From assembly GCA_017397935.1 (NCBI GenBank), contig JAFQHN010000015.1, positions 2,746 to 66,745 of the forward strand: a stretch of DNA of 64,000 nt. Direction: 5' to 3'. Position 1 is the first letter of the stretch; each line of letters opens with the position of its first letter. Both the position numbers and the translations under genes were made by a program. Below are positions 4,813 to 61,877 of the stretch, piece after piece. The notes beneath the pieces were generated by a model, which was given only the letters and a program-made list of their open reading frames with translations, ran no database searches and had not been told where the DNA came from. The stretch is from Bacillota bacterium (lineage in GTDB: Bacteria > Bacillota > Dehalobacteriia > UBA4068 > UBA4997).

Positions 4813-6126
4813 TTAAATTTTTTGAGAGAACTTGGCACCGCCCTCGCCAAACAGACGGTCCAGAATAATCGAAACGGCACTGCGGACAGAAAGATGGTTG
4901 TAAGCACCTGCTCCGTAAATGGGACGCAGAACATGGTCTGCTCTTGCCATCATCTCATCGGTAAGGCCCCAGCCGGTGCCGAAAAGTAAGAGATAAGGAC
5001 GGTCACTTTCGGCAATTTGGCGGCGCATTTCCGGGTAATCCACCATTTTGGGGCCGGCTTGGGCCGATGTAGCCACCAACAGCGGTTTTTGGCCGGTCTG
5101 GCGCTCAATATCAGCAATGGCCTGTTCTACGCTGTCGCAAAGCTGAATATGCCCCAATGCTTCGTGGCGGTCGGGGTTATAGCGCGCACCAAAGCCGTAC
5201 TCCCAATGCTTGACCAGAGAGCCGATAAGCTCCTTCTGGGCGGCGGCAGGCTGTACCAGATAATAACCGTCCAGCCCGAAAGTGGTGGCGGCACGGGCAA
5301 TATCGTGGATATCCAAATTGGTGACCGAGGTATTGATGACCTCATGCTTTTTGTTATAAACGGGATAATGCACCAGCGCTACCCACACACGGCTGTGGCC
5401 AGCTTTTTCGGCCTTGATACTGTCCAAAATCCGCAAATCCTCCTGCGTAAGCGGTGCTTTGGCCAGCAGCTCGGGGCGTCGCTCATAGGTACGGCGCAGG
5501 CTTTGCTCCCGGCGCCAGCGGCGGATCTCCTCATGGTTGCCGCCCTGCAAAACCTCGGGTACGGTCAGGCCGGCAAACTCCGGCGGACGGGTATACTGGG
5601 GATATTCCAGCAGACCTTCGCTGAAACTCTCCTCCTCGCTGGATTCATCATGGCCCAGGGCACCGGGCAGCAGGCGAATAATGGAATCAGCCATCACCAT
5701 GGCAGGCAGTTCTCCGCCCGTCAGCACAAAATCACCGATGGAGAAAACATCGGTGGCCAGCTGGTCTTCCACACGCTGGTCAATACCCTCATAGTGCCCG
5801 CAGATGAAAATAACCTGCTCTGCTTTGCTCAATTCCTGGGCTGCCTGCTGGTCAAAAACACGGCCGGCCGGGCTGGTGATGATAACCCGGGCGTTTTCGG
5901 TCTGCCGCAGGTCGGCAATCGCCTCAAACAGCGGCTCAGGCTTCATCACCATACCTGCCCCGCCGCCATACAGCTTATCATCGGTCAAGCCGTGTTTGGG
6001 GCCGGTGTAATCACGGATATTTTTTACATTCAAATCAATCAGTTGATTTTTTACGGCTCTGCCCACAATGCTTTGCTGCAAGGGTGCAAACATCTCCGGG
6101 AAGAGCGTCAAGATGTCGATACGCAT
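4813..6126 (-). CDS. trmD: tRNA (guanine37-N1)-methyltransferase TrmD fused to a C-terminal SpoU/TrmH-like SPOUT methyltransferase-like domain (437 aa)
   Basis: N-terminal ~245 aa is canonical TrmD (MRIDILTLFPEMF…GGGAGMVM…); C-terminal ~190 aa shows SPOUT-like motifs (LLFGTGWGLTDE…, NHLSVRSAVSIILDRL). Overlaps rimM stop; classic position after rimM. Confidence 0.85.
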   Translation of the reverse strand: MRIDILTLFPEMFAPLQQSIVGRAVKNQLIDLNVKNIRDYTGPKHGLTDDKLYGGGAGMVMKPEPLFEAIADLRQTENARVIITSPAGRVFDQQAAQELSKAEQVIFICGHYEGIDQRVEDQLATDVFSIGDFVLTGGELPAMVMADSIIRLLPGALGHDESSEEESFSEGLLEYPQYTRPPEFAGLTVPEVLQGGNHEEIRRWRREQSLRRTYERRPELLAKAPLTQEDLRILDSIKAEKAGHSRVWVALVHYPVYNKKHEVINTSVTNLDIHDIARAATTFGLDGYYLVQPAAAQKELIGSLVKHWEYGFGARYNPDRHEALGHIQLCDSVEQAIADIERQTGQKPLLVATSAQAGPKMVDYPEMRRQIAESDRPYLLLFGTGWGLTDEMMARADHVLRPIYGAGAYNHLSVRSAVSIILDRLFGEGGAKFSQKI

Positions 6127-6674
6127 TAGTCCAGCAAGCCCTCCGGAATTTTTACATCCATACGGCCGGCGGCGATGTCTACATTTAAGATGCAGCTTTT
6201 TAACGCAGGCAGCAGAATTTCGGGATACTTGGCATCCTTGGCGCCCTCGATGATGTAGACATCATTGGCACCGGTTTGCATGATCTCTGTGATAGTGCCC
6301 AACAAAACATCGTTCTCATAAACCGAGAGACCAATCAACTGGAAGTGATAATATTCGCCCTCCGGCAGCTCCGGCAGGGTGTCACGGGACACCTGCAAAT
6401 AAGTGTGCAGCAGGCTTTGCGCGGTATCGCGGTCCTCGATGCCGGAAAGTGTCAGCAGATACAGGCCTTTATGCTGGCTGCTGGCCAGAACCTCGACGGT
6501 ACGGCGCTGCTTTTCCAGATACAGTTCGGCCCCTTTAACAAAACGGGTCTCGGGGAAGTCTGTAAGAGCTGCCACCTTTACTTGGCCTTTAATACCATGG
6601 GCACCGGTAATCTCACCGACATTGATCATATCCTGCGGGGCAAATTTTTGACGGGCCAGCACTTTAATAGTCAT
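6126..6674 (-). CDS. rimM: Ribosome maturation factor RimM
   Basis: RimM N-terminal barrel plus PRC domain; between KH-protein gene and trmD. Confidence 0.9.
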   Translation of the reverse strand: MTIKVLARQKFAPQDMINVGEITGAHGIKGQVKVAALTDFPETRFVKGAELYLEKQRRTVEVLASSQHKGLYLLTLSGIEDRDTAQSLLHTYLQVSRDTLPELPEGEYYHFQLIGLSVYENDVLLGTITEIMQTGANDVYIIEGAKDAKYPEILLPALKSCILNVDIAAGRMDVKIPEGLLD

Positions 6675-6782
6675 ATAACTGCTCCTTTTTTATTATAAAT
6701 CAGCTAAAAATACAAACAGGAGAGCCTTGCGGACTCCCCTGCATGAAAAATCAATTTGTAAAATCGTCAGGGACAAGCGGCC

Positions 6783-7013
6783 TCAGACAATATCCAGATT
6801 GGCTTTTTTGCCTTCGGTCATGGCGGCAGCCTTCAAAACTGTACGCATGGCCTTGGCAATACGGCCCTGTTTGCCGATAACCTTACCCATATCTTCCTTG
6901 GCAGTATGCAGTTCCAGGTTGACGGTTTTGTTATCCTTAACGGTTTCCACAACTTCGACTGAATCAGGTTGAGTCACAAGAGATTTGGCTATGTGTTCAA
7001 TCAGTTCTTTCAT
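6783..7013 (-). CDS. KH-domain RNA-binding protein (YlqC/UPF0109 family)
   Basis: 76 aa, GKQGRIAKA KH motif; conserved position between rpsP and rimM. Confidence 0.8.
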   Translation of the reverse strand: MKELIEHIAKSLVTQPDSVEVVETVKDNKTVNLELHTAKEDMGKVIGKQGRIAKAMRTVLKAAAMTEGKKANLDIV

Positions 7014-7081
7014 TATAGGTCATCTCCCTTTGATTAGACTTGACTTTATTCAGACTTTACGGTATTGGTTTTGTGGCCAAA

Positions 7082-7339
7082 TTATTTTGCACGCTTTGCC
7101 CAGATACCGGTAGTTTTCAGCAGCTGTTTAACGGTCTCGGACGGTTCAGCACCGGTTTGCAGCCATTTCAGAGCCTTTTCCTCGTTGATGCAAATTTCGG
7201 TGGGTTCAGCAATCGGATTGTAGTAACCGATTTCTTCGATAAAACGACCGTCACGAGGGCTGCGGGAGTCAGCTACGATAACACGGTAGAAAGGAGCCTT
7301 CTTGGCGCCCATGCGACGCAGACGAATTTTAGTTGCCAT
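7082..7339 (-). CDS. rpsP: 30S ribosomal protein S16
   Basis: [35 protein letters not shown]… canonical S16; AGGAGG RBS. Confidence 0.95.
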
Positions 7340-7407
7340 AATTTTTCACCTCCTAATTAATCTAAACTATATATAAATATCATTAAAAATGAAAATGTAA
7401 TACCTGC

Positions 7408-8823
7408 TTATCGGCCTAAAAACTTGGAGAATACGCTTTCAATGGTGGTGCGTCTGCTCTTGGTTTTGGTATTGCTTTTGCCCTTTTTATTGCGGGGCTT
7501 GTGGATGCGATCTGTTTTCATCATGCCGGAATCGGTCAGCTTCTTCATCACCTTGCGCATCTCATCAAACTGCTTTAACAGGCGGTTGATTTGCATAACC
7601 TGCATACCGCAGCCCTTGGCAATACGCTTTTTGCGGGAAGCATTGATGATGGAAGGATTCTGACGCTCTTCCTTGGTCATCGAGAGCACGATGGCTTCTA
7701 CACGGCGGATTTCCTTCTCGTCAATCTGCAAATCTTTCAGCTGCTTGCCCATACCGGGAATCAGCGAGAGCATTTCGCGCATATCACCCATCTTGCGGAT
7801 CTGCTGCATCTGGTCCAGAAAGTCATCCAGAGTGTAGCTGGCGGTACGCATTTTGTTTTCCAGCTCTCTGGCTTTCTGCTCATCAACACTGGCCTGAGCT
7901 TTCTCAATCAGCGTCAGCATATCACCCATGCCGAGGATTCGGGAAGCCATACGGTCGGGATAGAACAACTCCATAGCGTCCAGCTTCTCACCCATGCCGA
8001 CAAATTTAATCGGTTTGCCGGTGACGGATTTAGCCGAAAGTGCCGCGCCGCCTCGGGTATCGCCGTCCATTTTGGTCAGCACCAGGCCGTCAATCTCCAA
8101 CTGCTCGTTGAAGGTTTCGGCCACTTTAATGGCGTCCTGACCGGCCATGGCGTCAACCACCAGCAAAATTTCATGCGGCTGTACGGTTTCTTTGATGTCC
8201 TTCAATTCCTGCATCAAGGCTTCATCAATATGCAGACGGCCGGCGGTGTCGATAAGCACCATGTCATTGTTGTGGGCCTTGGCGTGTTCAACAGCCTGGC
8301 GGGCAATTTCCACGGGGCTTACCTTATCACCCAGCGAGAAAACTGCAATATCCAACTGCTCGCCCAGCACCTGCAACTGCTTGATGGCGGCCGGACGGTA
8401 AATATCGGCGGCAACCAACAGCGGACGTTTATGTTTATTCTTATAGATGTTAGCAATTTTAGCAACAGAAGTGGTCTTACCGGAGCCTTGCAAACCGGCC
8501 ATCATGATAATCGTGGGCGGCTTGCTGGCCATATTGATGGAGGATTGCTCCGAACCCATCAGGATGGTCAATTCCTCCTGCACAATTTTTACAACCTGCT
8601 GTCCGGGAGTAAGACTCTCCAAAATATCAGCGCCAAGTGCGCGCTCTTTAACGGTGGCCACAAAATCCTTAACAACTTTGTAGCTGACGTCGGCTTCCAG
8701 CAGAGCCATACGCACGGTTCGCATTGCCTCGTTAATATCTGCCTCGGTCAGCTTGCCCTTGCCGGTCAGCTTCTTAAAAGTGTCCTGCAATTTATCTGCC
8801 AAGCTGCTGAAAACTGCCATCAT
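7408..8823 (-). CDS. ffh: Signal recognition particle protein Ffh (SRP54)
   Basis: N, G (GLQGSGKTT, DTAGR) and M domains; C-terminal basic tail. Confidence 0.95.
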   Translation of the reverse strand: MMAVFSSLADKLQDTFKKLTGKGKLTEADINEAMRTVRMALLEADVSYKVVKDFVATVKERALGADILESLTPGQQVVKIVQEELTILMGSEQSSINMASKPPTIIMMAGLQGSGKTTSVAKIANIYKNKHKRPLLVAADIYRPAAIKQLQVLGEQLDIAVFSLGDKVSPVEIARQAVEHAKAHNNDMVLIDTAGRLHIDEALMQELKDIKETVQPHEILLVVDAMAGQDAIKVAETFNEQLEIDGLVLTKMDGDTRGGAALSAKSVTGKPIKFVGMGEKLDAMELFYPDRMASRILGMGDMLTLIEKAQASVDEQKARELENKMRTASYTLDDFLDQMQQIRKMGDMREMLSLIPGMGKQLKDLQIDEKEIRRVEAIVLSMTKEERQNPSIINASRKKRIAKGCGMQVMQINRLLKQFDEMRKVMKKLTDSGMMKTDRIHKPRNKKGKSNTKTKSRRTTIESVFSKFLGR

Positions 8824-54753: not shown

Positions 54754-54842
54754 GGAGCGGTATCGAAGTGGTCATAACGAGCCTGACTCGAAATCAGGTG
54801 TACCTCACGGTACCGTGGGTTCGAATCCCACCCGCTCCGCCA
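54754..54842 (+). tRNA. tRNA-Ser (anticodon CGA), long variable arm, encoded CCA
   Basis: GGAGCGG…anticodon loop CTCGAAA…long variable arm GTACCTCACGGTACCGT…GTTCGAATC…CCGCTCCGCCA. Confidence 0.85.
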
Positions 54843-55519: not shown

Positions 55520-55801
55520 CTGACTAAATGCGGTGAGCAGAACTAAGTAAGCTTGGAAAGAGCTTGAAGAGAGTTGCCGGATGGTGCAAGGCAATGGCGA
55601 TGACCATGACGAATTCCTTCTGTTAGCAGTGCGCTGAACAAGAGAAATCTTAAGTAGGAGGCAACGGGAGTTCCCGTTACAGAACTAGGGTATGTTAGTA
55701 CCTGATAAGGTTGCTGTCGTGAGGTAGTGACAAACTGAGGTGGTACCACGGAAATGTTTTTTCGTCCTCTGTATCTTGTTTAAGATGCAGAGGATTTTTT
55801 T
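55520..55801 (+). promoter_or_regulatory. T-box-like riboswitch (tRNA-sensing leader) ending in intrinsic terminator
   Basis: AGAGAG stem-I-like element at 55566-55573; T-box-like box AAACUGAGGUGGUACCACGG at 55731-55750 (consensus AAUUAGGGUGGNACCGCGG); terminator CCUCUG…CAGAGG plus U7 at 55765-55801 overlapping the box. Confidence 0.6.
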
Positions 55802-55954: not shown

Positions 55955-56893
55955 TTGTACACTATGAAAAAAATGTTATCCATCGTACTTGCACTTACCC
56001 TTTGCGTAAGCACATGTCTCTCGCTCTCAGGCTGCGGGGGCAAAAATTACAGCTATCAGGTAGGCATTTGTCAGCTTATGGTCCATGATTCACTGGATCA
56101 GGCAACACAAGGTTTTCAGGATGGTTTGAAAGCCGCTCTTGAAAAAGAAGGCAAAACAGTAGAGTTTGATACACAGGTTGCAGGCGAAGCAAACCTTTGC
56201 ACAACTGTTATCAACACATTCACAGCAAAGAATGTTGACCTTATTATGGCTAACGCAACCCCTGCACTTTTGGCTGCTGCTAATGCAACAACAAAGATTC
56301 CTGTGCTCGGTACTTCTGTAACAGACTATGCTGATACATTCTCCGGTAATATTCCTGAAAATGTAACAGGTACATCTGATGCGGTTCCTTTCGATGAACA
56401 GGCAAAAATGATGATTGAAAGCCTCAACCTTGTTGAAGGCGATAAAGTTGGCGTTATTTACTGCACAAACGAATCCAACTCTCTTATCCAGTATAACGCT
56501 GTAAAAGAACTCTTTGAAGCAGAAGGTATCGTAGTAACAGCATACACATTCTCTGAAACAACAGAGCTTCAAGCACTCGTTACAAAGGCTGCATCTGAAT
56601 CAAAGGCAATCTATGTTCCTTCTGATAACACAGTTGCACAGAACGATACAGTAGTTGGAACAATCTGCACAGATAAGAATGTTCCTGTATTCACAAGTTA
56701 TGGCGGTGGAATCTGCTATGCAAGCCTTGCAATCGACTACTATCAGCTTGGCCACAGAACAGGTGAACAGGCTGCCGAAATCCTTCTTGGCAACAAGAAA
56801 CCTTCTGACATTAAGGTAGAAACCCTTACACCTTCTGTTATTTACAACGAAGAACTTTGCGCGCAACTTGGAATCGAGGTTCCGCAGAACTAA
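55955..56893 (+). CDS. ABC transporter substrate-binding lipoprotein, PF04392 (ABC_sub_bind) family (TrpX-like, putative aromatic amino acid/tryptophan uptake)
   Basis: Lipoprotein signal (…LSGCGG), family resemblance; T-box leader upstream. Confidence 0.7.
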   Translation: MYTMKKMLSIVLALTLCVSTCLSLSGCGGKNYSYQVGICQLMVHDSLDQATQGFQDGLKAALEKEGKTVEFDTQVAGEANLCTTVINTFTAKNVDLIMANATPALLAAANATTKIPVLGTSVTDYADTFSGNIPENVTGTSDAVPFDEQAKMMIESLNLVEGDKVGVIYCTNESNSLIQYNAVKELFEAEGIVVTAYTFSETTELQALVTKAASESKAIYVPSDNTVAQNDTVVGTICTDKNVPVFTSYGGGICYASLAIDYYQLGHRTGEQAAEILLGNKKPSDIKVETLTPSVIYNEELCAQLGIEVPQN

Positions 56894-56917
56894 TCAAAAA
56901 ATACGAGGTACTGCAAA

Positions 56918-57838
56918 ATGGCTTTTTTGAATGTTTTACCCGGAGCAATCGCGGAAGGGCTGATATGGGGACTTATGGCAATCGGTGTCTATATCTCCTA
57001 TAAGATTTTAGATATTGCAGACCTATCGGTAGATGGCTCTATTTGCACAGGTGCGTGTGTATGCGTTGTGATGCTTGCCGCAGGAAATCCGATTTGGCTT
57101 TGTATGCTCGCGTCGGTTATTGCCGGTGCTTTGGCAGGTGTATTGACGGGACTGTTTCATACTGCACTTGGAATACCGGCTATTCTTGCAGGTATCCTGA
57201 CTCAGCTTATTCTCTATTCGGTAAATCTGTCTATACTTGGCGGTAAATCCTTAATCGCTATTGATATTCGTTCAACGAACCTTATTATGCACATGAGCGA
57301 TAACCCAATGGCGATTGTATCGGCAGGATTGATTATTGTGGCAACTATTATTGGGCTTTGGTTGTTCTTCTATACAGAGACAGGATTGACCATTAAATCG
57401 ACAGGTGATAATCCGCATATGAGCCGCGCACAAGGTGTCAATGTTGATCTTAACAAGGTTATCGGTCTTGCAATATCAAACGGTATTGTAGCTTTGGCAG
57501 GCTCTCTTTTAGCTCAGTACAAAGGTTCTGCCAATATCAATGACGGCAGAGGTGCTATCGTAATCGGACTTGCAGCTATATTTATCGGTCTTTCGGTATC
57601 ACTTAAAATCAAACCGAATTTTGTTTGCAGTTTGATAGGCGTAATCGGCGGCGGTATTGTGTATTACATAATCTATAACTTTGTAATTCTTTTGGGACTT
57701 AAAACCGATTATCTTAAAATGCTGTCGGCAATTATAGTTGCTTTATTCATTGCTGTGCCATATCTAAAAACAAAATATTTCACAAAGCAAAAGCCTATAC
57801 CGATAGTGCAAAATAATGGAGGTGATGAAGATGCTTAA
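56918..57838 (+). CDS. ABC transporter permease (TrpY-like)
   Basis: Polytopic membrane protein with branched-chain-type permease fold; operon position. Confidence 0.75.
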   Translation: MAFLNVLPGAIAEGLIWGLMAIGVYISYKILDIADLSVDGSICTGACVCVVMLAAGNPIWLCMLASVIAGALAGVLTGLFHTALGIPAILAGILTQLILYSVNLSILGGKSLIAIDIRSTNLIMHMSDNPMAIVSAGLIIVATIIGLWLFFYTETGLTIKSTGDNPHMSRAQGVNVDLNKVIGLAISNGIVALAGSLLAQYKGSANINDGRGAIVIGLAAIFIGLSVSLKIKPNFVCSLIGVIGGGIVYYIIYNFVILLGLKTDYLKMLSAIIVALFIAVPYLKTKYFTKQKPIPIVQNNGGDEDA

Positions 57839-58628
57839 AATTAAAAACCTCCAAAAAACATTTAATCCCGGAACAGTTAATGCAAAAACTGCTTTGGCAG
57901 GTCTTAATTTAACTCTTAACAACGGAGATTTTGTTACCGTTATAGGCGGTAACGGTGCAGGTAAATCCACTATGCTCAATGCTATATCAGGTGTGTGGAA
58001 GCCTGACTACGGCACAATCGAAATTGACGGTGTGGATGTAACCAATATGCCCGAATACAAAAGAGCAAAGTTTTTGGGCAGAGTTTTTCAGGACCCGATG
58101 ATGGGAACTGCACCTGATATGGAAATTGCCGAGAATTTGGGAATTGCCAGAAGACGTGGCACAAAGCGTAGACTTCGCTGGGGTATCAGAAAGGCGGAGC
58201 GGCAGGAATATAAGGAACTGCTTGCTACATTAGAGCTTGGTCTGGAAAACAGACTTTCAAGCAAGGTCGGTCTTTTGTCCGGCGGACAAAGACAGGCGGT
58301 AACGCTTCTTATGGCAACGCTTAACCGTCCGAAGCTTCTTCTCCTGGATGAACACACTGCTGCACTTGATCCGAAAACTGCGGCAAAGGTGCTTGAAATA
58401 ACTAATAAAATAGTTACGGAAAATAACCTGACAACACTTATGATTACTCATAATATGCATGATGCAATCGAATACGGCAACCGCCTCATTATGATGCACG
58501 AAGGCAAAGTGATTGTTGACGTCTCCGGCGAAGAAAAGAAAAAACTGACAATTTCTCAGCTTCTTGAATTGTTTGAAAAAGCAAGCGGAAGCGAATTCGC
58601 AAACGATAAGGTTATGTTATCTAAATAA
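57831..58628 (+). CDS. ABC transporter ATP-binding protein (TrpZ-like)
   Basis: Walker A GGNGAGKST, signature LSGGQRQ, Walker B LLLDEHTAALD; start MLKIKN after GGAGGTG RBS. Confidence 0.85.
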   Translation: MLKIKNLQKTFNPGTVNAKTALAGLNLTLNNGDFVTVIGGNGAGKSTMLNAISGVWKPDYGTIEIDGVDVTNMPEYKRAKFLGRVFQDPMMGTAPDMEIAENLGIARRRGTKRRLRWGIRKAERQEYKELLATLELGLENRLSSKVGLLSGGQRQAVTLLMATLNRPKLLLLDEHTAALDPKTAAKVLEITNKIVTENNLTTLMITHNMHDAIEYGNRLIMMHEGKVIVDVSGEEKKKLTISQLLELFEKASGSEFANDKVMLSK

Positions 58629-58636
58629 GAATTATT

Positions 58637-58677
58637 GTTAAGTGGCTGCCAAATGACAGCCACTTAACTTGTTTTAT
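58637..58677 (+). terminator. Strong terminator after ABC operon (12-bp perfect stem GTTAAGTGGCTG/CAGCCACTTAAC plus TTGTTTTAT)
   Basis: Read directly. Confidence 0.7.
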
Positions 58678-58907: not shown

Positions 58908-59966
58908 ATGCCATTACAAATAGTAAGAAATGACATCACAAAAATGAAAGTAGACGCCATCGTTAACGCTGCCAACACATCGCTTCTCGGCGGCGGCGGT
59001 GTTGACGGCTGTATCCACCGTGCCGCCGGCCCGTCTCTTCTTACCGAGTGCAAAATGCTTGGCGGCTGTGAAACCGGCAGTGCCAAAATTACCGGTGCAG
59101 GAAATCTGCCTTGTAAACATGTTATTCATGCCGTGGGGCCCCGGTGGCTGGGAGGCGGTCACGGAGAGCGAGAACAGCTCATTTCCTGTTATCGGACGAG
59201 TCTGGCGCTGGCCGGGGATAAGGAATGTGAGACAGTTGCTTTTCCGCTGTTTTCTTCCGGTATCTACGGCTACCCCAAGGATAAAGCGTTGAGAATAGCC
59301 ATAGATACGATAAGTGAGTTTTTGCTTGATAACGATATGACCGTCTATATTGTTATCTTTGATAAAACAGCATACCAAATCAGCGAAAAACTGTTTGCAG
59401 ATATTACCGAATACATTGATGACAACTATGTGAATGAACATACTGGTACCTGCCCTAACCGTCTGTGCAGAAATGACAGAATGTACGAAGAAGACATTAT
59501 TTACAGGGCAAACATCGAAGTAGCTATTGATGATGATACCGATGACTTGATTCCGGTTTGTGCATCGGCAGCAAAAGCGGAATACAAATCAAATAAGGAC
59601 TCATTGGAATATATCCTTAAACAGATTGATGAGAGTTTTTCTGAAATGCTGCTGCGCAAGATTGACGAGTGCGGTATTACAGATGCTGAATGCTACAAGA
59701 AAGCAAACATTGACCGCAAGCTGTTCTCCAAAATCCGCAGTGATAAGCTGTATAAGCCGAGCAAACCTACTGTTATTGCCTTTGCTATCGCCCTTAAACT
59801 GTCTTTGGAGGAAACGAAGGATATGCTGATGAAGGCCGGTTTTGCACTCTCCCACTCCAATAAATTCGACATAATTATTGAGTATTTTATCGAAAACGAA
59901 AATTACAATGTCTTTGAAATAAATGAGGCCCTGTTTGCCTTTGACCAAAGTTTGCTGGGAGCATAA
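58908..59966 (+). CDS. Macro-domain (MacroD/YmdB-like ADP-ribose-binding/hydrolase) protein fused to a C-terminal extension containing an XRE-like helix-turn-helix (352 aa)
   Basis: N-terminal ~175 aa: …[27 protein letters not shown]…VIHAVGPRW…[13 protein letters not shown]…; C-terminal region …[19 protein letters not shown]…[28 protein letters not shown] resembles Cro/C1-type HTH. Confidence 0.7.
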
Positions 59967-60010
59967 AACTGTTGATATTCTCACAATAAAAGGATTGATT
60001 AAGCCAACCG

Positions 60011-60034
60011 GATTTGTCGCCTGCCATGCGACCA
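60011..60034 (+). repeat. Direct repeat copy 1 (ATTTGTCGCCTGCCATGCGACCA), 80 bp upstream of the HD-domain gene
   Basis: Shares 19/23 positions, including 14-bp perfect core CTGCCATGCGACCA, with 61438-61460. Confidence 0.6.
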
Positions 60035-60113
60035 AAACAAATATCTCTGACTGTATAATGATAGTGTCAGTTAAATCGGGCAGATGTCAGCAAGCTATCA
60101 GGAGGGATAAATT

Positions 60114-61433
60114 ATGAATCAACAATTTACTGCTGAGGATATTCTTAATGCGAAACAAATTTATTTCTATAACAACGAAACACTTTACATCATAGACCAT
60201 GATGATGAGGCATACGGATACAGCAAAGGATGTTCCGGCTGGTATCATAAAGAAAACTTCTGGGATTATTTTGAGTCTGAGCTGATGATGACCTACTTTA
60301 CCCACATCACCAAAGAAGAAGCCGTTCAGCTTTATCTTGGCTGGGCAGATGATTACAACGCTGATAATTGCCGGCTTGACAAAGCAATTATTTTTGCTGT
60401 GGAACATCATGCCGGCCAGTTCCGTAAAAGTACGGTACTCCCCTACATCACCCACCCTATTGAAACAATGCAGATTCTTTATTCCATGAGAGCAGACATC
60501 AACCTGCTGATAGCCGGTGTGCTTCATGACACGATTGAGGACACCGAAGCAACAGAGCAAGACATTCGGGAACTGTTTGGAGATGATGTTGCAGGGCTTG
60601 TTACTGCCCACAGCGAGGACAAAAGCAAAACATGGCAGGAACGCAAAACCCACGCCATTGAAGAACTGGCGAAGGCTGACAAGCGTTTGAAGATGCTGAT
60701 TATGGCTGATAAAGTATCTAACCTTAGAAACATGGTATCCGATTACTCTCTGGTTGGTGATGAGCTATGGAACAGATTTAACGCACCGGTCAACAAGCAA
60801 TCCCGGTATTACAGCGACATTCAGGATGCGCTCTGTGATATGCAAAAATATCCGGAATGTGCTGCCGTGTATTGGGAAATGGTTGGTCTGTATAAAGACT
60901 TGTTCGTAAGATACTATCTCGATAAAAGAACAAATACGCTGTACCGGTTCTGCTTAGGTATTGCTATCTATGCTCTGCAAAAAGGAACTCCCCAATGGAC
61001 GGAGTACCAAGAAAAGCATATTCCTGAAAATGCAGAACCCATAGAGCGCTTAGCAGCTGAACACATGGAAGATGATTGGAAATCTGCTTTTCAGCATCAA
61101 CATGAAATGGATATTTCCAATGCGTCATATTCTGTATATGGCTCAATAAGACGCTGCATTGACTTTCGCATTTCCGATGGAAAGCTGACAGTCGCTTGTG
61201 AGGACTTCGGGCCTGAATGTCAAAATATGACCGGCAATAATATGTACGAGTTCTTTTATCAGTTGGATGAGGACAATACCCTTCGCTTGTTAACCGGACT
61301 CCGCATCGAATACGGACTTGAAACCGATTTGATTGATTTGCTTAAAGAGGCTTTTGGCTCGGATGACGGAACAACCCTGTTCACAAATTTCTGCAAGAAA
61401 AATCGCATTAAATACAAGTTTTTCTCAATGTAA
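60114..61433 (+). CDS. 439-aa protein with central RelA/SpoT-type HD domain (small alarmone hydrolase-like) flanked by uncharacterised N- and C-terminal regions
   Basis: HD motif set …AVEHHAGQFRKS…PYITHPIE…AGVLHDTIEDT… as in SpoT/Mesh1 hydrolase domains; no synthetase domain; ~220-aa C-terminal part unassignable. Confidence 0.65.
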   Translation: MNQQFTAEDILNAKQIYFYNNETLYIIDHDDEAYGYSKGCSGWYHKENFWDYFESELMMTYFTHITKEEAVQLYLGWADDYNADNCRLDKAIIFAVEHHAGQFRKSTVLPYITHPIETMQILYSMRADINLLIAGVLHDTIEDTEATEQDIRELFGDDVAGLVTAHSEDKSKTWQERKTHAIEELAKADKRLKMLIMADKVSNLRNMVSDYSLVGDELWNRFNAPVNKQSRYYSDIQDALCDMQKYPECAAVYWEMVGLYKDLFVRYYLDKRTNTLYRFCLGIAIYALQKGTPQWTEYQEKHIPENAEPIERLAAEHMEDDWKSAFQHQHEMDISNASYSVYGSIRRCIDFRISDGKLTVACEDFGPECQNMTGNNMYEFFYQLDEDNTLRLLTGLRIEYGLETDLIDLLKEAFGSDDGTTLFTNFCKKNRIKYKFFSM

Positions 61434-61437
61434 TATA

Positions 61438-61460
61438 AATTTAGTGTCTGCCATGCGACC
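61438..61460 (+). repeat. Direct repeat copy 2 (ATTTAGTGTCTGCCATGCGACCA), 5 bp after the HD-domain gene stop
   Basis: See copy 1. Confidence 0.6.
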
Positions 61461-61543
61461 ATGCAAAGTGCAATTTAAGATACAATATGACTGTAAGGTA
61501 AAAACCGAGCAGTCATATTTCTATTTGCGTTGGTATATAAAAA

Positions 61544-61580
61544 GGAGCAAGGCATATTTCAGTCTTGCTCCTATTATAAT
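61544..61580 (+). terminator. Terminator after HD-domain gene (GGAGCAAG…CTTGCTCC plus U-rich tail)
   Basis: 8-bp perfect stem, 12-nt loop. Confidence 0.5.
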
Positions 61581-61877
61581 TTATATGCTGCTTAGTTTAA
61601 CAAATCAGCAATTTGATTACTTGTCTCTTGCCAGGCAGCCAACAATGGCCAAAATTAAACCAATAAGCGCGCTGCCTGCTGCAAACAGATCATTTGTCGA
61701 TAGAGCGATACCGAGTAAACTTACACATACACCAACAATACTTATTTTAATCCCCTTCATACAATCGTACTACTTCGGCCCATTTAAGAAGCAACTCTTA
61801 AACTGTCTGCATAGTTTGGTTTATTTGTCCAAATCAGTAAACAAATCTGCCTGGTTATAAAATTTTTTATGCGATTT

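Follow-up and report, generated by a model that had tools for sequence, protein, structure and literature searches.

The window analyzed here is a stretch of 64,000 nucleotides from contig JAFQHN010000015.1 of a Bacillota bacterium. It carries two consecutive plus-strand genes separated by 147 bp (Table 1). The upstream gene encodes a macrodomain protein with a C-terminal HTH module, termed Macro-HTH, and the downstream gene a multidomain protein with an HD hydrolase core, termed HD protein. Both open reading frames were found exactly as given in a preliminary description of this DNA, with identical coordinates, strand and lengths. Two terminator-like hairpins bound the two-gene unit, the first of which closes an upstream ABC-transporter operon (ABC_sub_bind, BPD_transp_2 and ABC_tran). 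The flanks are of housekeeping character (ABC transporter and radical-SAM gene) and contain no mobile-element genes. The pair had been described as part of a low-GC island. Its GC content of 0.43–0.44 is below the 0.487 of the whole window, but the neighboring T-box/ABC-transporter operon is equally low (0.42), and neither an integrase nor an att-like repeat bounding the region was found. No ART, DarT or SAS gene was detected in the flanks examined, in agreement with the earlier remark that no cognate toxin is visible, and PADLOC models matched neither protein. The window holds no vWA, ARH or SseB gene and no Nudix or WYL domain.

Table 1. Features of the Macro-HTH/HD locus, in positions of the window.
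Feature	Position	Strand	Basis or remark
Terminator-like hairpin, 5' boundary of the two-gene unit	58637..58668	+	12–14 bp stem, then T-run
Macro-HTH gene	58908-59966	+	352 aa
MacroD-type macrodomain, aa 1–165	58908..59402	+	Pfam Macro; alignment to MACROD2 4iqy with catalytic motifs
Linker, aa 166–228, poorly conserved	59403..59591	+	conservation begins at ~aa 230
XRE-type HTH module and C-terminal helical extension, aa 229–352 plus stop	59592..59966	+	AF2, Foldseek
Operator-promoter T-GTCGC-CTGCCAT-GCGAC-C, 20 nt, TATAAT	60015..60059	+	palindrome 60016-60032; TATAAT 60054-60059
HD-protein gene	60114-61433	+	439 aa
N-terminal small beta-meander/helix domain, aa 1–66	60114..60311	+	family alignment, Pfam, AF2
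SAH-type HD hydrolase core, aa 88–265, MixSpo/RelH-like	60375..60908	+	
Family-specific C-terminal alpha/beta region, aa 266–439 plus stop	60909..61433	+	two beta-sheet/helix units
Degenerate second operator-promoter CTGCCAT-GCGAC-C, 20 nt, TACAAT	61448..61486	+	23-nt direct repeat of first site
Terminator-like hairpin, 3' boundary of the two-gene unit	61543..61572	+	

The N-terminal part of Macro-HTH is a macrodomain of the MacroD/YmdB type, as had been proposed. The Pfam model Macro (PF01661) covers residues 19–131 with an E value of 1.5e-43. The nearest relatives are MACROD2 (4iqy, E = 4e-47), DR_2288 and YmdB (1spv, E = 8e-44). The catalytic loops N-x6-GGG-[VLI]-D..H and G-[VIA]-[YF]-G are intact, the latter reading SSGIYGYP, and both can be aligned to MACROD2 residue for residue. 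The domain is predicted to be an ADP-ribosyl hydrolase and/or a sensor of ADP-ribose (ADPr).

The C-terminus of Macro-HTH was matched by no Pfam or NCBIfam model, and only a weak in-register profile match to XRE-type HTHs was obtained (E about 0.5). Structure prediction confirmed the XRE-like HTH that had been suggested for this region. The AF2 model of residues 228–352 (pLDDT 91) shows the five-helix XRE fold and matched C.Esp1396I, DdrO, SinR, CapH-N and 434 Cro with a Foldseek probability of 1.0, the target-normalised TM scores against XRE folds being 0.7–0.8 over the first ~65–70 residues. The module is found in 6534 clusters at 50% identity, is 65–87% identical and is C-terminal without exception. 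Its recognition helix DRKLFSKIR is almost invariant; the N-terminal parts of the proteins that contain it are variable or of low complexity. Proteins with the HTH module only were also found paired with genes of the small alarmone hydrolase (SAH) type (L132, L111). For a transcription factor this much conservation is out of the ordinary, and some other conserved partner could lie behind it.

In the HD protein the Pfam domain HD_4 covers residues 91–207 (E = 2.8e-18). The motifs HHAGQFRK, PYITHP, LHDTIEDT, SEDK and ADKVSNLRN are present, corresponding to an RSH hydrolase domain with motifs HD1–HD6, and a family alignment of 19 sequences shows no variation at H99, H114, P115, H138, D139, E142, D143, N203 and R205. 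The earlier claim of a full RelA/SpoT hydrolase motif set is thus borne out. The core has an SAH fold of the RelH/Lmo0812/Mesh1 kind, and its closest structural neighbors are RelH, Lmo0812 and a (p)ppApp hydrolase. Lmo0812 aligns at profile positions 90–270. The SAH core extends to about residue 265–270, so the unmatched C-terminal part comprises ~170 aa and not the ~220 aa stated before. A RelA_SpoT synthetase domain was found neither by Pfam nor by NCBIfam, and the extensions adopt other folds in the AF2 model; the PGAP name "bifunctional (p)ppGpp synthetase/hydrolase" is, judged by these predictions, misleading. SAHs are single-domain proteins of about 150–200 aa, whereas the HD protein has 439 aa with a conserved N-terminal domain and the long C-terminal region, and is best called an SAH-fold multidomain protein. 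The N-terminal slot is filled by SseB, Macro or DUF6508 in paralogous architectures. The domain found there in the HD protein weakly resembles the first C-terminal subdomain (hhalign P = 4.5e-4). The C-terminal region yielded a confident AF2 model and is conserved among family members, with no Pfam or PDB sequence match; it is possibly chaperone-like or substrate-binding. The full SAH motif set and an identity of 28–36% to proven (p)ppGpp hydrolases keep alarmone hydrolysis the simplest biochemical reading of the HD protein.

A palindrome combined with a promoter element precedes the HD gene. The window contains one match to this composite motif, where 0.06 are expected. The same design, a 17-bp palindrome of the consensus GTCGC-yTGnCAr-GCGAC lying 21 nt upstream of a -10 box (frequently an extended one), is common to HD, vWA and ARH genes and was found at 43 distinct sites upstream of such genes. 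The -10 box emerged in the position matrix built from these 43 sites although the search had not demanded one. In every relevant locus the motif lies on the gene strand with the fixed 21-nt spacing, and at 18 of 19 sites the following gene encodes an HD, vWA or ARH protein. In many loci an exact palindrome is found just past the stop codon of a Macro-HTH or HD gene, and its center is located ~42 nt upstream of the inferred transcription start. Viral contigs of IMG/VR, scanned by DNA pattern alone, gave 77 hits, 36 of them directly upstream of a vWA or ARH gene; most of these 36 loci also hold Macro-HTH. Half-site variants (GTCTC, GTCAC) are uncompensated, and the inner TGnCA is itself palindromic, which leaves a "loop" of 1 nt. 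Both features speak for an operator acting as DNA and against an RNA hairpin. The GTCGC-N7-GCGAC operator-promoter is newly identified here. The motif is absent from the promoter of Macro-HTH itself.

A second, degenerate copy lies 3' of the HD gene; it has lost the left half-site and has no gene behind it. In relatives the order is HD, operator, vWA (L081, L006, L270), with vWA at the position of the second site. A gene-less operator at this place suggests that the window has lost its vWA partner and retained a remnant of the promoter. With its housekeeping flanks and missing vWA gene, the window copy could be decaying.

The neighborhoods of homologues link the HD protein to ADP-ribosyl hydrolases. 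We found a Macro::HD fusion (P0103), SseB::Macro::HD fusions (P0114 and P0106; L001, L090-L096) and an ARH::HD fusion of 652 aa (L124). The same-strand neighborhood of Macro-HTH, HD, vWA and sometimes ARH is conserved across several genera, including a Clostridia MAG (L081), Flemingiibacterium (L006), Sedimentibacter (L009), Faecousia (L001), L270 and others. In the minimal loci (window, L081, L189) no protein other than Macro-HTH has an HTH; one relative (L084) encodes a WYL regulator. Homologues are often co-located, but not universally; this co-location and the conserved HD motifs run counter to the outcomes that the preliminary description had named as refuting. On ICE-like islands, most of the sampled close homologues of Macro-HTH lack an HD neighbor, and some full-length HD homologues are solitary among housekeeping genes, without an operator (P0013, P0050). 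More distant SAHs have a macro neighbor in 3 of 114 loci and an ARH neighbor in 6 of 114. Among the neighbor families of about 46 related loci no toxin, whether ART or SAS, recurs. The module is carried by mobile elements in a patchy distribution: Macro-HTH occurs on ICE-like islands and, in one mobilisable region, next to MobC and a relaxase; a Heliusvirales phage carries Macro-HTH, vWA and an HD_4 protein; and relatives are present on plasmids and other viral contigs. Gut Firmicutes commonly carry the module, as do their phages and their conjugative elements. Its toxin-less arrangement is conserved and widespread and is consequently the native state.

The fusions to Macro and ARH domains, the adjacency in several genera and the operator-promoter before the HD gene argue for a functional link between Macro-HTH and HD. 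Together with the relatives on mobile elements they support, at the level of sequence, the regulated module that had been proposed, and not a chance neighborhood. We assign roughly even confidence to the reading that this gene pair represents a reduced version of a mobile, toxin-less module linked to ADPr metabolism, a regulated module that would erase ADPr attached by foreign enzymes.

In the mechanism that we propose, the near-invariant HTH of Macro-HTH would bind the 17-bp palindrome as a dimer. A site centered near -42 without a -35 box would suit a class-II activator or a C-protein-like controller. The activity of the HTH would depend on whether the macrodomain binds or turns over ADPr, so that the onset of ADP-ribosylation, or of free ADPr, in the cell would switch the HD gene (elsewhere vWA and ARH). 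The module would then strip ADPr put on macromolecules of the cell or element by a foreign ADP-ribosyltransferase (ART), which may be a phage ART, a defence or toxin-antitoxin toxin such as DarT or CmdT, or an interbacterial toxin. The HD protein would clear a phosphorylated nucleotide linked to ADPr erasure; our preferred guess is an ADPr-type nucleotide with an extra ribose phosphate or pyrophosphate. Comparable chemistry is performed by Mesh1 on NADPH. Housekeeping (p)ppGpp turnover by the HD protein is less likely. The role of an alarmone or toxSAS antidote, suggested in the preliminary description, stands as one possibility, but the repeated fusion of this HD to ADP-ribosyl hydrolases of two unrelated kinds agrees no less well with an ADPr-linked substrate. 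Macro-HTH is probably both eraser and regulator. Its assignment as the regulator is circumstantial, as operator-bearing HD loci without Macro-HTH within 6 kb (L003/L004) and one set of ICE loci with Macro-HTH and no operator within about 11 kb (L185-L187) are known, and its own promoter lacks the motif. In a bolder form, which we hold with less than even confidence, Macro-HTH could be the first macrodomain transcription factor, reading ADP-ribosylation or free ADPr and switching on vWA, ARH and the SAH-fold hydrolase via the operator, and the SAH-fold enzyme could act on a phosphorylated ADPr-type nucleotide and not on alarmones.

The closest precedent is the class of "ARG-centric" systems, which are predicted to counter viral ADP-ribosylation (Iyer, Burroughs, Anantharaman & Aravind 2022, Viruses 14:1977, section 3.8; PMC9503650). 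They were described around ARG from actinobacteria, planctomycetes and proteobacteria, where the regulators are of the Nudix-HTH or WYL-HTH type. By its predicted domain composition, the module is a Firmicutes/mobile-element variant of these systems. Both have an ADPr-deconjugating enzyme without a coupled ART or sirtuin (in the window Macro, not ARG), a coupled or fused phosphatase (here the downstream alarmone-type HD, with fusions in relatives), partners of the "chaperone" kind (vWA, SseB) with Macro domains as an option (in relatives of the module), a one-component HTH regulator with an ADPr-sensing domain (for Macro-HTH a proposed role), restriction-type neighbors and variable accretion of modules. 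The missing toxin, regarded as unusual in the preliminary description, is the defining property of this computationally predicted class (Iyer et al.). In contrast to the described systems, the core of the module is a MacroD macrodomain fused to an XRE HTH, which would place sensor, enzyme and regulator in one protein; Macro-HTH takes the place of the Nudix-HTH or WYL-HTH regulator. The module resides in gut Firmicutes and in their phages and ICE-like islands, its HD protein is extended by N- and C-terminal domains, and a defined operator-promoter is present. The window copy lacks ARG and vWA, whereas ARG/ARH occurs in relatives. Of the chaperone partners (vWA, SseB, TY-Chap) the window holds neither a vWA nor an SseB gene, and the extra domains of the HD protein might fill the peptide-binding role. 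A text search of Iyer et al. 2022 found neither a Macro-HTH fusion nor such an operator.

The HD protein differs from the MixSpo/RelH SAHs (C. glutamicum RelH 7QOD, L. levettii RelH 7QOE and L. monocytogenes Lmo0812 4YF1) and Mesh1, which are single-domain proteins of about 180–200 aa, by its ~66-aa N-terminal domain and ~170-aa C-terminal alpha/beta region. In relatives, SseB, Macro, ARH or DUF6508 stands in place of the N-terminal domain, and genome context links the HD protein to ADPr hydrolases and not to stringent-response genes. A toxSAS-SAH identity was rejected, since no small alarmone synthetase is found in the window flanks or among the recurrent neighbors of the 46 loci.

NrtR-type Nudix-HTH regulators respond to ADP-ribose and control neighboring NAD/ADPr genes via palindromic operators. 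Macro-HTH would resemble them, by analogy and with no homology claimed, in the fusion of an ADPr-binding or -processing domain to a DNA-binding domain. Its sensor would be Macro and not Nudix, its DNA-binding domain is XRE-type, and an operator predicted to lie near -42 hints at activation, or at control in the manner of C proteins, more than at plain repression. The restriction-modification controller (C) proteins, C.Esp1396I among them, are small dimeric XRE proteins; they recognise palindromic boxes that overlap the -35 region and turn a downstream gene on or off. In structure the HTH module matches these proteins best. In Macro-HTH, however, it follows an enzyme domain and has about 45 aa of additional helical sequence, the operator bears no relation in sequence to theirs, and the window offers no restriction-modification context. 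DarG, the antitoxin of DarTG2, consists of a TARG1-like macrodomain and a DarT-binding domain and is always found beside DarT. Macro-HTH is proposed to share with DarG and AdfN the hydrolytic reversal of a toxin's ADP-ribosylation, but differs from DarG in its MacroD-type macrodomain and HTH C-terminus and has neither a PADLOC match nor a DarT gene nearby. AdfN, a NADAR protein, is an eraser without a cognate toxin that acts as counter-defence on mobile elements (PMC11825919). A DarTG identity was rejected because the flanks contain no DarT, the macrodomain is MacroD-type and the C-terminus is an XRE HTH.

Among the other explanations the best placed, with a modest but appreciable probability, is that two independent erasers are kept together as a poly-immunity or poly-antidote locus and co-regulated solely because both threats arrive together. 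The macrodomain would act against ART toxins and the HD protein against products of RelA/SpoT-like toxins, degrading (pp)pApp or (p)ppGpp or removing a 3'-pyrophosphate from tRNA (toxSAS, CapRel, Tas1-type). The full motif set and the structural neighbors of the HD core agree with this, and SAHs of neighboring families act on both (pp)pGpp and (p)ppApp (PMC10434055). RelA/SpoT-like toxin domains occur in Gram-positive polymorphic toxins, Imm-ARG and poly-immunity fusions exist (PMC3482391), and on ICE-like islands Macro-HTH lies beside other protective genes (WapI, ClbS, an orphan methylase and GNAT). However, fusion of HD to ADPr hydrolases of two unrelated folds and an operator common to vWA and ARH fit one pathway better than two, and no SAS toxin is present in any neighborhood examined. 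In the related systems of proteobacteria and actinobacteria, phosphatases of the rhodanese-type, calcineurin-like and HAD classes can take the place of HD (PMC9503650), which argues for generic phosphoester processing of an ADPr product.

It is unlikely that Macro-HTH is instead a DNA-tethered repair enzyme whose HTH brings the macrodomain to DNA, for example incoming single-stranded ICE or phage DNA, to strip DarT-type ADPr, with the palindrome bound by another regulator. Macro-HTH adjoins a Y-family polymerase gene in 16 of 46 loci, a YolD-like gene in 13 of 46 and also Exo_endo_phos nucleases; it is found on ICE-like islands and phages, its very high HTH conservation suits a generic, non-co-evolving target, and orphan DNA-ADPr glycohydrolases have a precedent as phage counter-defence (AdfN, PMC11825919). 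Against this, the XRE fold, the invariant recognition helix and an equally invariant 17-bp palindrome, at a fixed promoter position next to the gene, form a classic signature of a specific operator/regulator pair, no other HTH gene is conserved in minimal loci, and the macrodomain is MacroD-type and not of the DarG/TARG1 type known to remove thymidine-linked ADPr.

A pure housekeeping function is less probable still. Here a YmdB-like O-acetyl-ADP-ribose deacetylase and a (p)ppGpp-trimming SAH would be adjacent by chance or through loose metabolic coupling. The top NCBIfam match of Macro-HTH is indeed an O-acetyl-ADP-ribose deacetylase model (197 bits against a cutoff of 200 bits), the window flanks are housekeeping without mobile-element genes, and some HD homologues are solitary chromosomal genes; but fusions, synteny across genera, a dedicated shared operator, frequent carriage on ICE-like islands, plasmids and phages and a patchy distribution speak against it, as do the extra domains of the HD protein, which are absent from every characterised SAH. 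Finally, a decayed DarTG-like or toxSAS-like toxin-antitoxin or defence system with a lost toxin gene is very improbable: Macro and SAH domains are both antitoxins elsewhere and the window copy is partly decayed (vWA lost, degenerate operator), but neither protein has a PADLOC match, no toxin gene recurs in the related loci, and the toxin-less arrangement is itself conserved.

ADP-ribosylation is a major weapon in phage-bacteria and interbacterial conflict (DarT, CmdT, Tre1, RhsP2, T4 Alt/Mod). To our knowledge, toxin-less eraser systems have been described solely in one computational prediction from 2022. The locus and its relatives provide a compact and testable system of this kind with a defined operator and a regulon of two to four genes, abundant in human-gut Firmicutes, their phages and ICE-like islands, in which Macro-HTH appears to unite eraser, sensor and regulator. 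If the proposed reading is true, gut Firmicutes, phages and conjugative elements would possess an inducible erasure of ADP-ribose-based attacks without a toxin gene of their own. SAH-fold chemistry in bacteria would extend to a phosphorylated ADPr-type nucleotide. The locus and its relatives also hint that some members of the "small alarmone hydrolase" superfamily serve ADPr biology and not the stringent response. The HTH module, with more than 6500 clusters at 50% identity, is a very common domain matched by no Pfam or NCBIfam model.

The two adjacent plus-strand open reading frames of the preliminary description were confirmed exactly. They encode proteins of 352 aa (Macro-HTH) and 439 aa (HD protein). 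The pair is bracketed by terminator-like hairpins and flanked by housekeeping genes. The upstream ABC-transporter operon (ABC_sub_bind, BPD_transp_2, ABC_tran) has a T-box leader (Rfam RF00230, 104 bits), which suggests a tRNA-sensed uptake system for amino acids or related compounds. Downstream, a radical-SAM gene and a phosphoribosyltransferase gene are located on the opposite strand. Between the HD terminator and the radical-SAM gene we found a hydrophobic 47-aa ORF (MKGIKISIVGVCVSLLGIALSTNDLFAAGSALIGLILAIVGCLARDK) with apparently two transmembrane helices. It could encode a small membrane protein; there is no evidence for a toxin role or for membership in the module. The pair had also been assigned to a low-GC island. 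Its GC content (0.43–0.44) is indeed below that of the window (0.487), but the adjoining ABC operon is just as low (0.42) and no marker of an island boundary was seen around the pair. The low-GC stretch (~54.5–62 kb) opens with a tRNA-Ser(CGA) gene. A genomic island using this tRNA gene as att site is unsupported, since there is neither an integrase nor a flanking repeat of the tRNA end and the low GC spans the housekeeping ABC operon. A PADLOC scan of Macro-HTH and the HD protein gave no match.

Positions of the gene pair, its control elements and neighboring features in the window
Feature	Position	Strand	Remarks
tRNA-Ser(CGA)	54754–54842		
T-box leader	55524–55772	+	
ABC-transporter operon	55955–58628		
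Terminator-like hairpin	58637–58668		5' bracket of the gene pair
Macro-HTH gene	58908–59966	+	
HTH module of Macro-HTH	59592–59963		
Intact palindrome	60016–60032		TATAAT at 60054–60059, AGGAGGG ribosome-binding site, HD ATG at 60114
HD gene	60114–61433	+	
Second copy of the element	61448–61486		spacer, right half-site and TACAAT at the same spacing kept; left half-site lost; followed only by a terminator
Terminator-like hairpin	61543–61572		3' bracket of the gene pair
47-aa ORF	61617–61760	−	

Residues 19–131 of Macro-HTH correspond to the Pfam Macro domain (E = 1.5e-43). The top NCBIfam match was an O-acetyl-ADP-ribose deacetylase model, slightly below cutoff. The nearest solved structures are MACROD2, DR_2288 and YmdB, and the catalytic loops match residue for residue. 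For the last ~125 aa no Pfam or NCBIfam model matched and a PDB sequence search revealed nothing significant. The confident AF2 model of this C-terminus (pLDDT 91) exhibited an eight-helix domain. With a Foldseek probability of 1.0 and a target TM of 0.7–0.8, its first ~65–70 residues superpose on the XRE-type HTHs of C.Esp1396I, DdrO, SinR, CapH-N and 434 Cro. A weak profile match in register agrees with this fold, and the suspected XRE-like HTH is thus borne out. An exhaustive HMMER search with the HTH module retrieved 6534 clusters at 50% identity, in which the module is always C-terminal and 65–87% identical. Despite this abundance the ~120-aa unit of XRE-HTH plus extension (sequences P0241–P0390) was matched by no Pfam or NCBIfam model. 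In PHROGs it corresponds to the functionally unannotated family phrog_4031, and the small vWA protein encoded near Macro-HTH and HD genes in related loci likewise falls into a functionally unannotated family. The commonest N-terminal partner of the module is a macrodomain (32/79 by Pfam, 64/136 by clustering). Full-length Macro-HTH proteins are very abundant and strongly conserved: more than 8000 matches were obtained, and the best 120 are 72–100% identical. One close homologue, P0121 (549 aa, 72% identity), carries two tandem macrodomains before the HTH module.

Residues 91–207 of the HD protein correspond to Pfam HD_4. The family profile matches Lmo0812 (E = 7e-47, alignment to profile position 270) and also RelH of Leptospira and Corynebacterium, Mesh1 and the hydrolase domains of Rel/SpoT. 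The claim of a full HD motif set of the small alarmone hydrolase (SAH) type holds: all catalytic residues are invariant among 19 diverse family members. Outside the HD core the protein contains a small N-terminal beta/helix domain (aa 1–66) and a C-terminal alpha/beta region of ~170 aa, which is kept across the family. Searches of Pfam, NCBIfam and PDB sequences gave nothing significant for either part. Between the N-terminal domain and the first C-terminal subdomain, hhalign indicated a weak similarity (P = 4.5e-4). With the C-terminal region alone as query, a word-indexed homologue search yielded just 2 fragments, and an IMG/VR search with the C-terminal profile of the family gave matches at the level of the HD core only, with no full-length family member. 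In GenBank the protein (MBQ3199393.1) is labelled 'bifunctional (p)ppGpp synthetase/guanosine-3',5'-bis(diphosphate) 3'-pyrophosphohydrolase'. This label is misleading because no synthetase domain was detected.

The proposed linkage of the two genes proved largely right and is based on three lines of evidence, namely fusions, synteny across loci and a shared cis element, a common operator-promoter. The N-terminal slot of the HD family is variable. It is occupied by a ~85-aa domain in the window, and elsewhere by SseB, DUF6508, a macrodomain (P0103) or SseB plus Macro (P0114, P0106; loci L001, L090–L096). Locus L124 encodes a 652-aa fusion of an ADP-ribosylglycohydrolase (ARH) with HD. Macro-HTH is encoded directly 5' of HD on the same strand in a Clostridia MAG (L081–83), whose HD is 45% identical to that of the window, in Flemingiibacterium (L006) and in L270. 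The distance is 1–3 kb in Sedimentibacter (L009), Faecousia (L001), L102 and L124. The same clusters repeatedly hold ARH genes and the small vWA gene (~215 aa, MIDAS motif DRSGSM). For comparison, loci of more distant SAHs showed a macro neighbor in only 3/114 and an ARH neighbor in only 6/114 cases. The two genes are not always found together. On ICE-like islands, three sets of close homologues of Macro-HTH are without an HD neighbor, and the HD homologues P0013 and P0050 are solitary.

In P0106 (717 aa, SseB::Macro::HD) a long acidic insert (DGDDGEDDEDDEDGFDNLDDEDFD...) at residues ~200–240 takes the place of the macro catalytic loop; this macrodomain is likely to be inactive or restricted to ligand binding. 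Just 3' of the L270 cluster, ordered Fic, Macro-HTH, HD and vWA, an unusual 806-aa eraser-methylase is encoded (6333–8753), in which ADP_ribosyl_GH is fused to an N6 DNA methyltransferase (HsdM_N, N6_Mtase, Eco57I). In L084 a 274-aa protein (5165–5989) located 5' of the HD homologue P0026 combines a canonical HTH_3 with a second HD_4 domain. Its neighbors are a WYL regulator, DUF1810, radical-SAM, NadR-like, PnuC and McrBC genes beside an integrase/PemK island. L084 shows the same HD family with another type of regulation, in a NAD-salvage context.

The HD gene in the window is flanked by a 23-nt direct repeat. Its core, GTCGC-N7-GCGAC, occurs once in the window compared to 0.06 expected matches, and the same palindrome follows right after the Macro-HTH or HD stop codon in many related loci. 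In the extended motif T-GTCGC-N7-GCGAC-C-N20-TAnnnT the spacing is exactly 21 nt with rare exceptions, and in all relevant loci the motif has the same orientation as the gene; the following ORF is HD in 6 loci and vWA in 11, with one case each of ARH and an unknown gene. We also collected palindromes with at most one mismatch 30–330 nt upstream of module genes, where a −10 box was not required. This yielded 43 distinct sites (30 before vWA, 8 before HD, 4 before ARH and 1 before a macro gene), among which the −10 box emerged unprompted (T 40/43, A 41/43, T 40/43). TGn extensions are common, the upstream region includes an A-rich stretch and the inner spacer forms a palindrome of its own (yTGnCAr). 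An RNA hairpin or terminator was rejected as an explanation. The half-sites are invariant, the variants GTCTC and GTCAC are not compensated in the other arm, the 17-mer is wholly palindromic with a 1-nt loop, and no T-run follows. Thus, the element is a 17-bp DNA palindrome. It would be centered ~42 nt upstream of the inferred transcription start, in a predicted promoter lacking a −35 box. As an independent test, IMG/VR was scanned with the DNA pattern alone. This gave 77 matches, roughly as many as we would expect by chance; in 36 of them a vWA or ARH gene follows the motif directly, and a Macro-HTH gene on the same strand is present in the majority of these loci.

The position of the second, degenerate copy in the window is occupied by the vWA gene in L081, L006 and L270, and neither a vWA nor an ARH gene was found within the window. 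With its lost half-site and missing vWA gene, the window therefore contains a reduced version of the module. Interpretation of a 14-nt repeat flanking HD as cassette or insertion scars was dropped, since the same palindrome in related loci points to an operator-promoter and its remnant.

We infer that Macro-HTH binds the palindrome as a dimer. No other HTH protein is encoded in the minimal loci (the window, L081, L189), and Macro-HTH accompanies the motif in nearly all loci of sufficient length. Its recognition helix DRKLFSKIR is nearly invariant, in line with the invariant half-sites. Structurally, its HTH comes closest to controller C-proteins, whose palindromic binding sites overlap the −35 region. 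HTH-module proteins without a macrodomain also pair with SAH genes (L132, L111). In L003 and L004 the operator is present and Macro-HTH is absent within 6 kb; in L185–L187 Macro-HTH is present and the operator is absent within ~11 kb.

Macro-HTH is carried by several kinds of mobile elements. On ICE-like islands it is found in long co-directional arrays behind ImmR/ImmA, together with WapI, GNAT, flavodoxin-like proteins, Y-family polymerase and YolD-like proteins, Exo_endo_phos nucleases and group II introns. On pMM35_01 of Vescimonas fastidiosa it belongs to an array that includes ClbS and an orphan DNA methylase and is located upstream of the MobC and relaxase genes. In Peptoclostridium a vWA gene comes after Macro-HTH. 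A Heliusvirales phage of 64 kb, from human faeces, has genes for a ResIII helicase and an N6-methyltransferase that enclose Macro-HTH, a 151-aa ORF, the operator, a vWA gene (51% identity to that of L081) and a gene for an SAH-like HD_4 protein. Clustering of the neighbors of 46 HTH-module loci revealed Macro-HTH in 45, vWA in 28, Y-family polymerase in 16, YolD-like in 13, ImmA in 10 and ImmR in 9. No recurrent ADP-ribosyltransferase (ART) or small alarmone synthetase (SAS) toxin was observed among them.

The absence of a toxin had been regarded as unusual. Indeed none was found in the flanks of the pair, but the toxin-less state is native to an already predicted class of systems. Iyer et al. 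2022 (PMC9503650, section 3.8) predicted 'ARG-centric' host systems against viral ADP-ribosylation. As outlined in that section, they consist of the core enzyme ARG without a coupled ART, a phosphatase of the rhodanese, calcineurin-like, alarmone-type HD or HAD kind that is closely linked or fused to it, chaperone-like proteins (vWA, SseB or TY-Chap), one-component regulators with a Nudix-HTH or WYL-HTH architecture, and optional Macro/NADAR domains and restriction nucleases. The parts list is close to ours, including a WYL regulator with McrBC (L084) and a LlaJI-type nuclease (L001). In contrast to the systems described there, core enzyme and regulator are merged here in one Macro-HTH protein, HD carries extra domains and an operator is defined. 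The hosts are Firmicutes, their phages and ICE-like islands instead of actinobacteria, planctomycetes and proteobacteria. Text searches of PMC9503650 for the Macro-HTH merger, Firmicutes or mobile hosts, the HD extra domains and the operator gave no result, and literature searches for an experimental paper tying SAHs to macrodomains found none. Enzymatic immunity (Imm-ARG, PMC3482391) is a related concept, as are the orphan antitoxin-like erasers carried by phages (AdfN, PMC11825919). The system class is already known, so far from computational prediction only; new are the regulator-enzyme fusion, the conserved operator with its small regulon, the multidomain SAH-fold member and the abundance in mobile elements of gut Firmicutes.

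The module may erase ADP-ribosylation imposed by a foreign ART. Binding or turnover of ADP-ribose (ADPr) in the macrodomain of the DNA-bound regulator would then tune how strongly the HD gene is expressed and, in other loci, the vWA and ARH genes. For HD, the least certain step, we favor an ADPr-derived phosphorylated nucleotide as substrate because HD is fused to two unrelated ADPr hydrolases and because Mesh1, a close structural neighbor, handles NADPH, which it binds and dephosphorylates. The same substrate is favored by the unrelated phosphatases that stand in for HD in the predicted systems, as outlined in PMC9503650. A serious alternative is hydrolysis of (pp)pGpp, (pp)pApp or 3'-pyrophosphorylated tRNA, with which the intact SAH motif set of HD is consistent. 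The carriage on both chromosomes and mobile elements suggests that the module serves whichever side is attacked, in host defence against phage ARTs or in phage/ICE counter-defence against host ART systems.

In several ICE-like and prophage-like loci (L180–L188, L217, L218, L234 and others) Macro-HTH, behind ImmR/ImmA, is often followed by Y-family polymerase/YolD-like and Exo_endo_phos genes, and an operator-controlled vWA gene is located 3–5 kb further downstream. This arrangement hints at a link to DNA-lesion tolerance, perhaps to DNA ADP-ribosylation.
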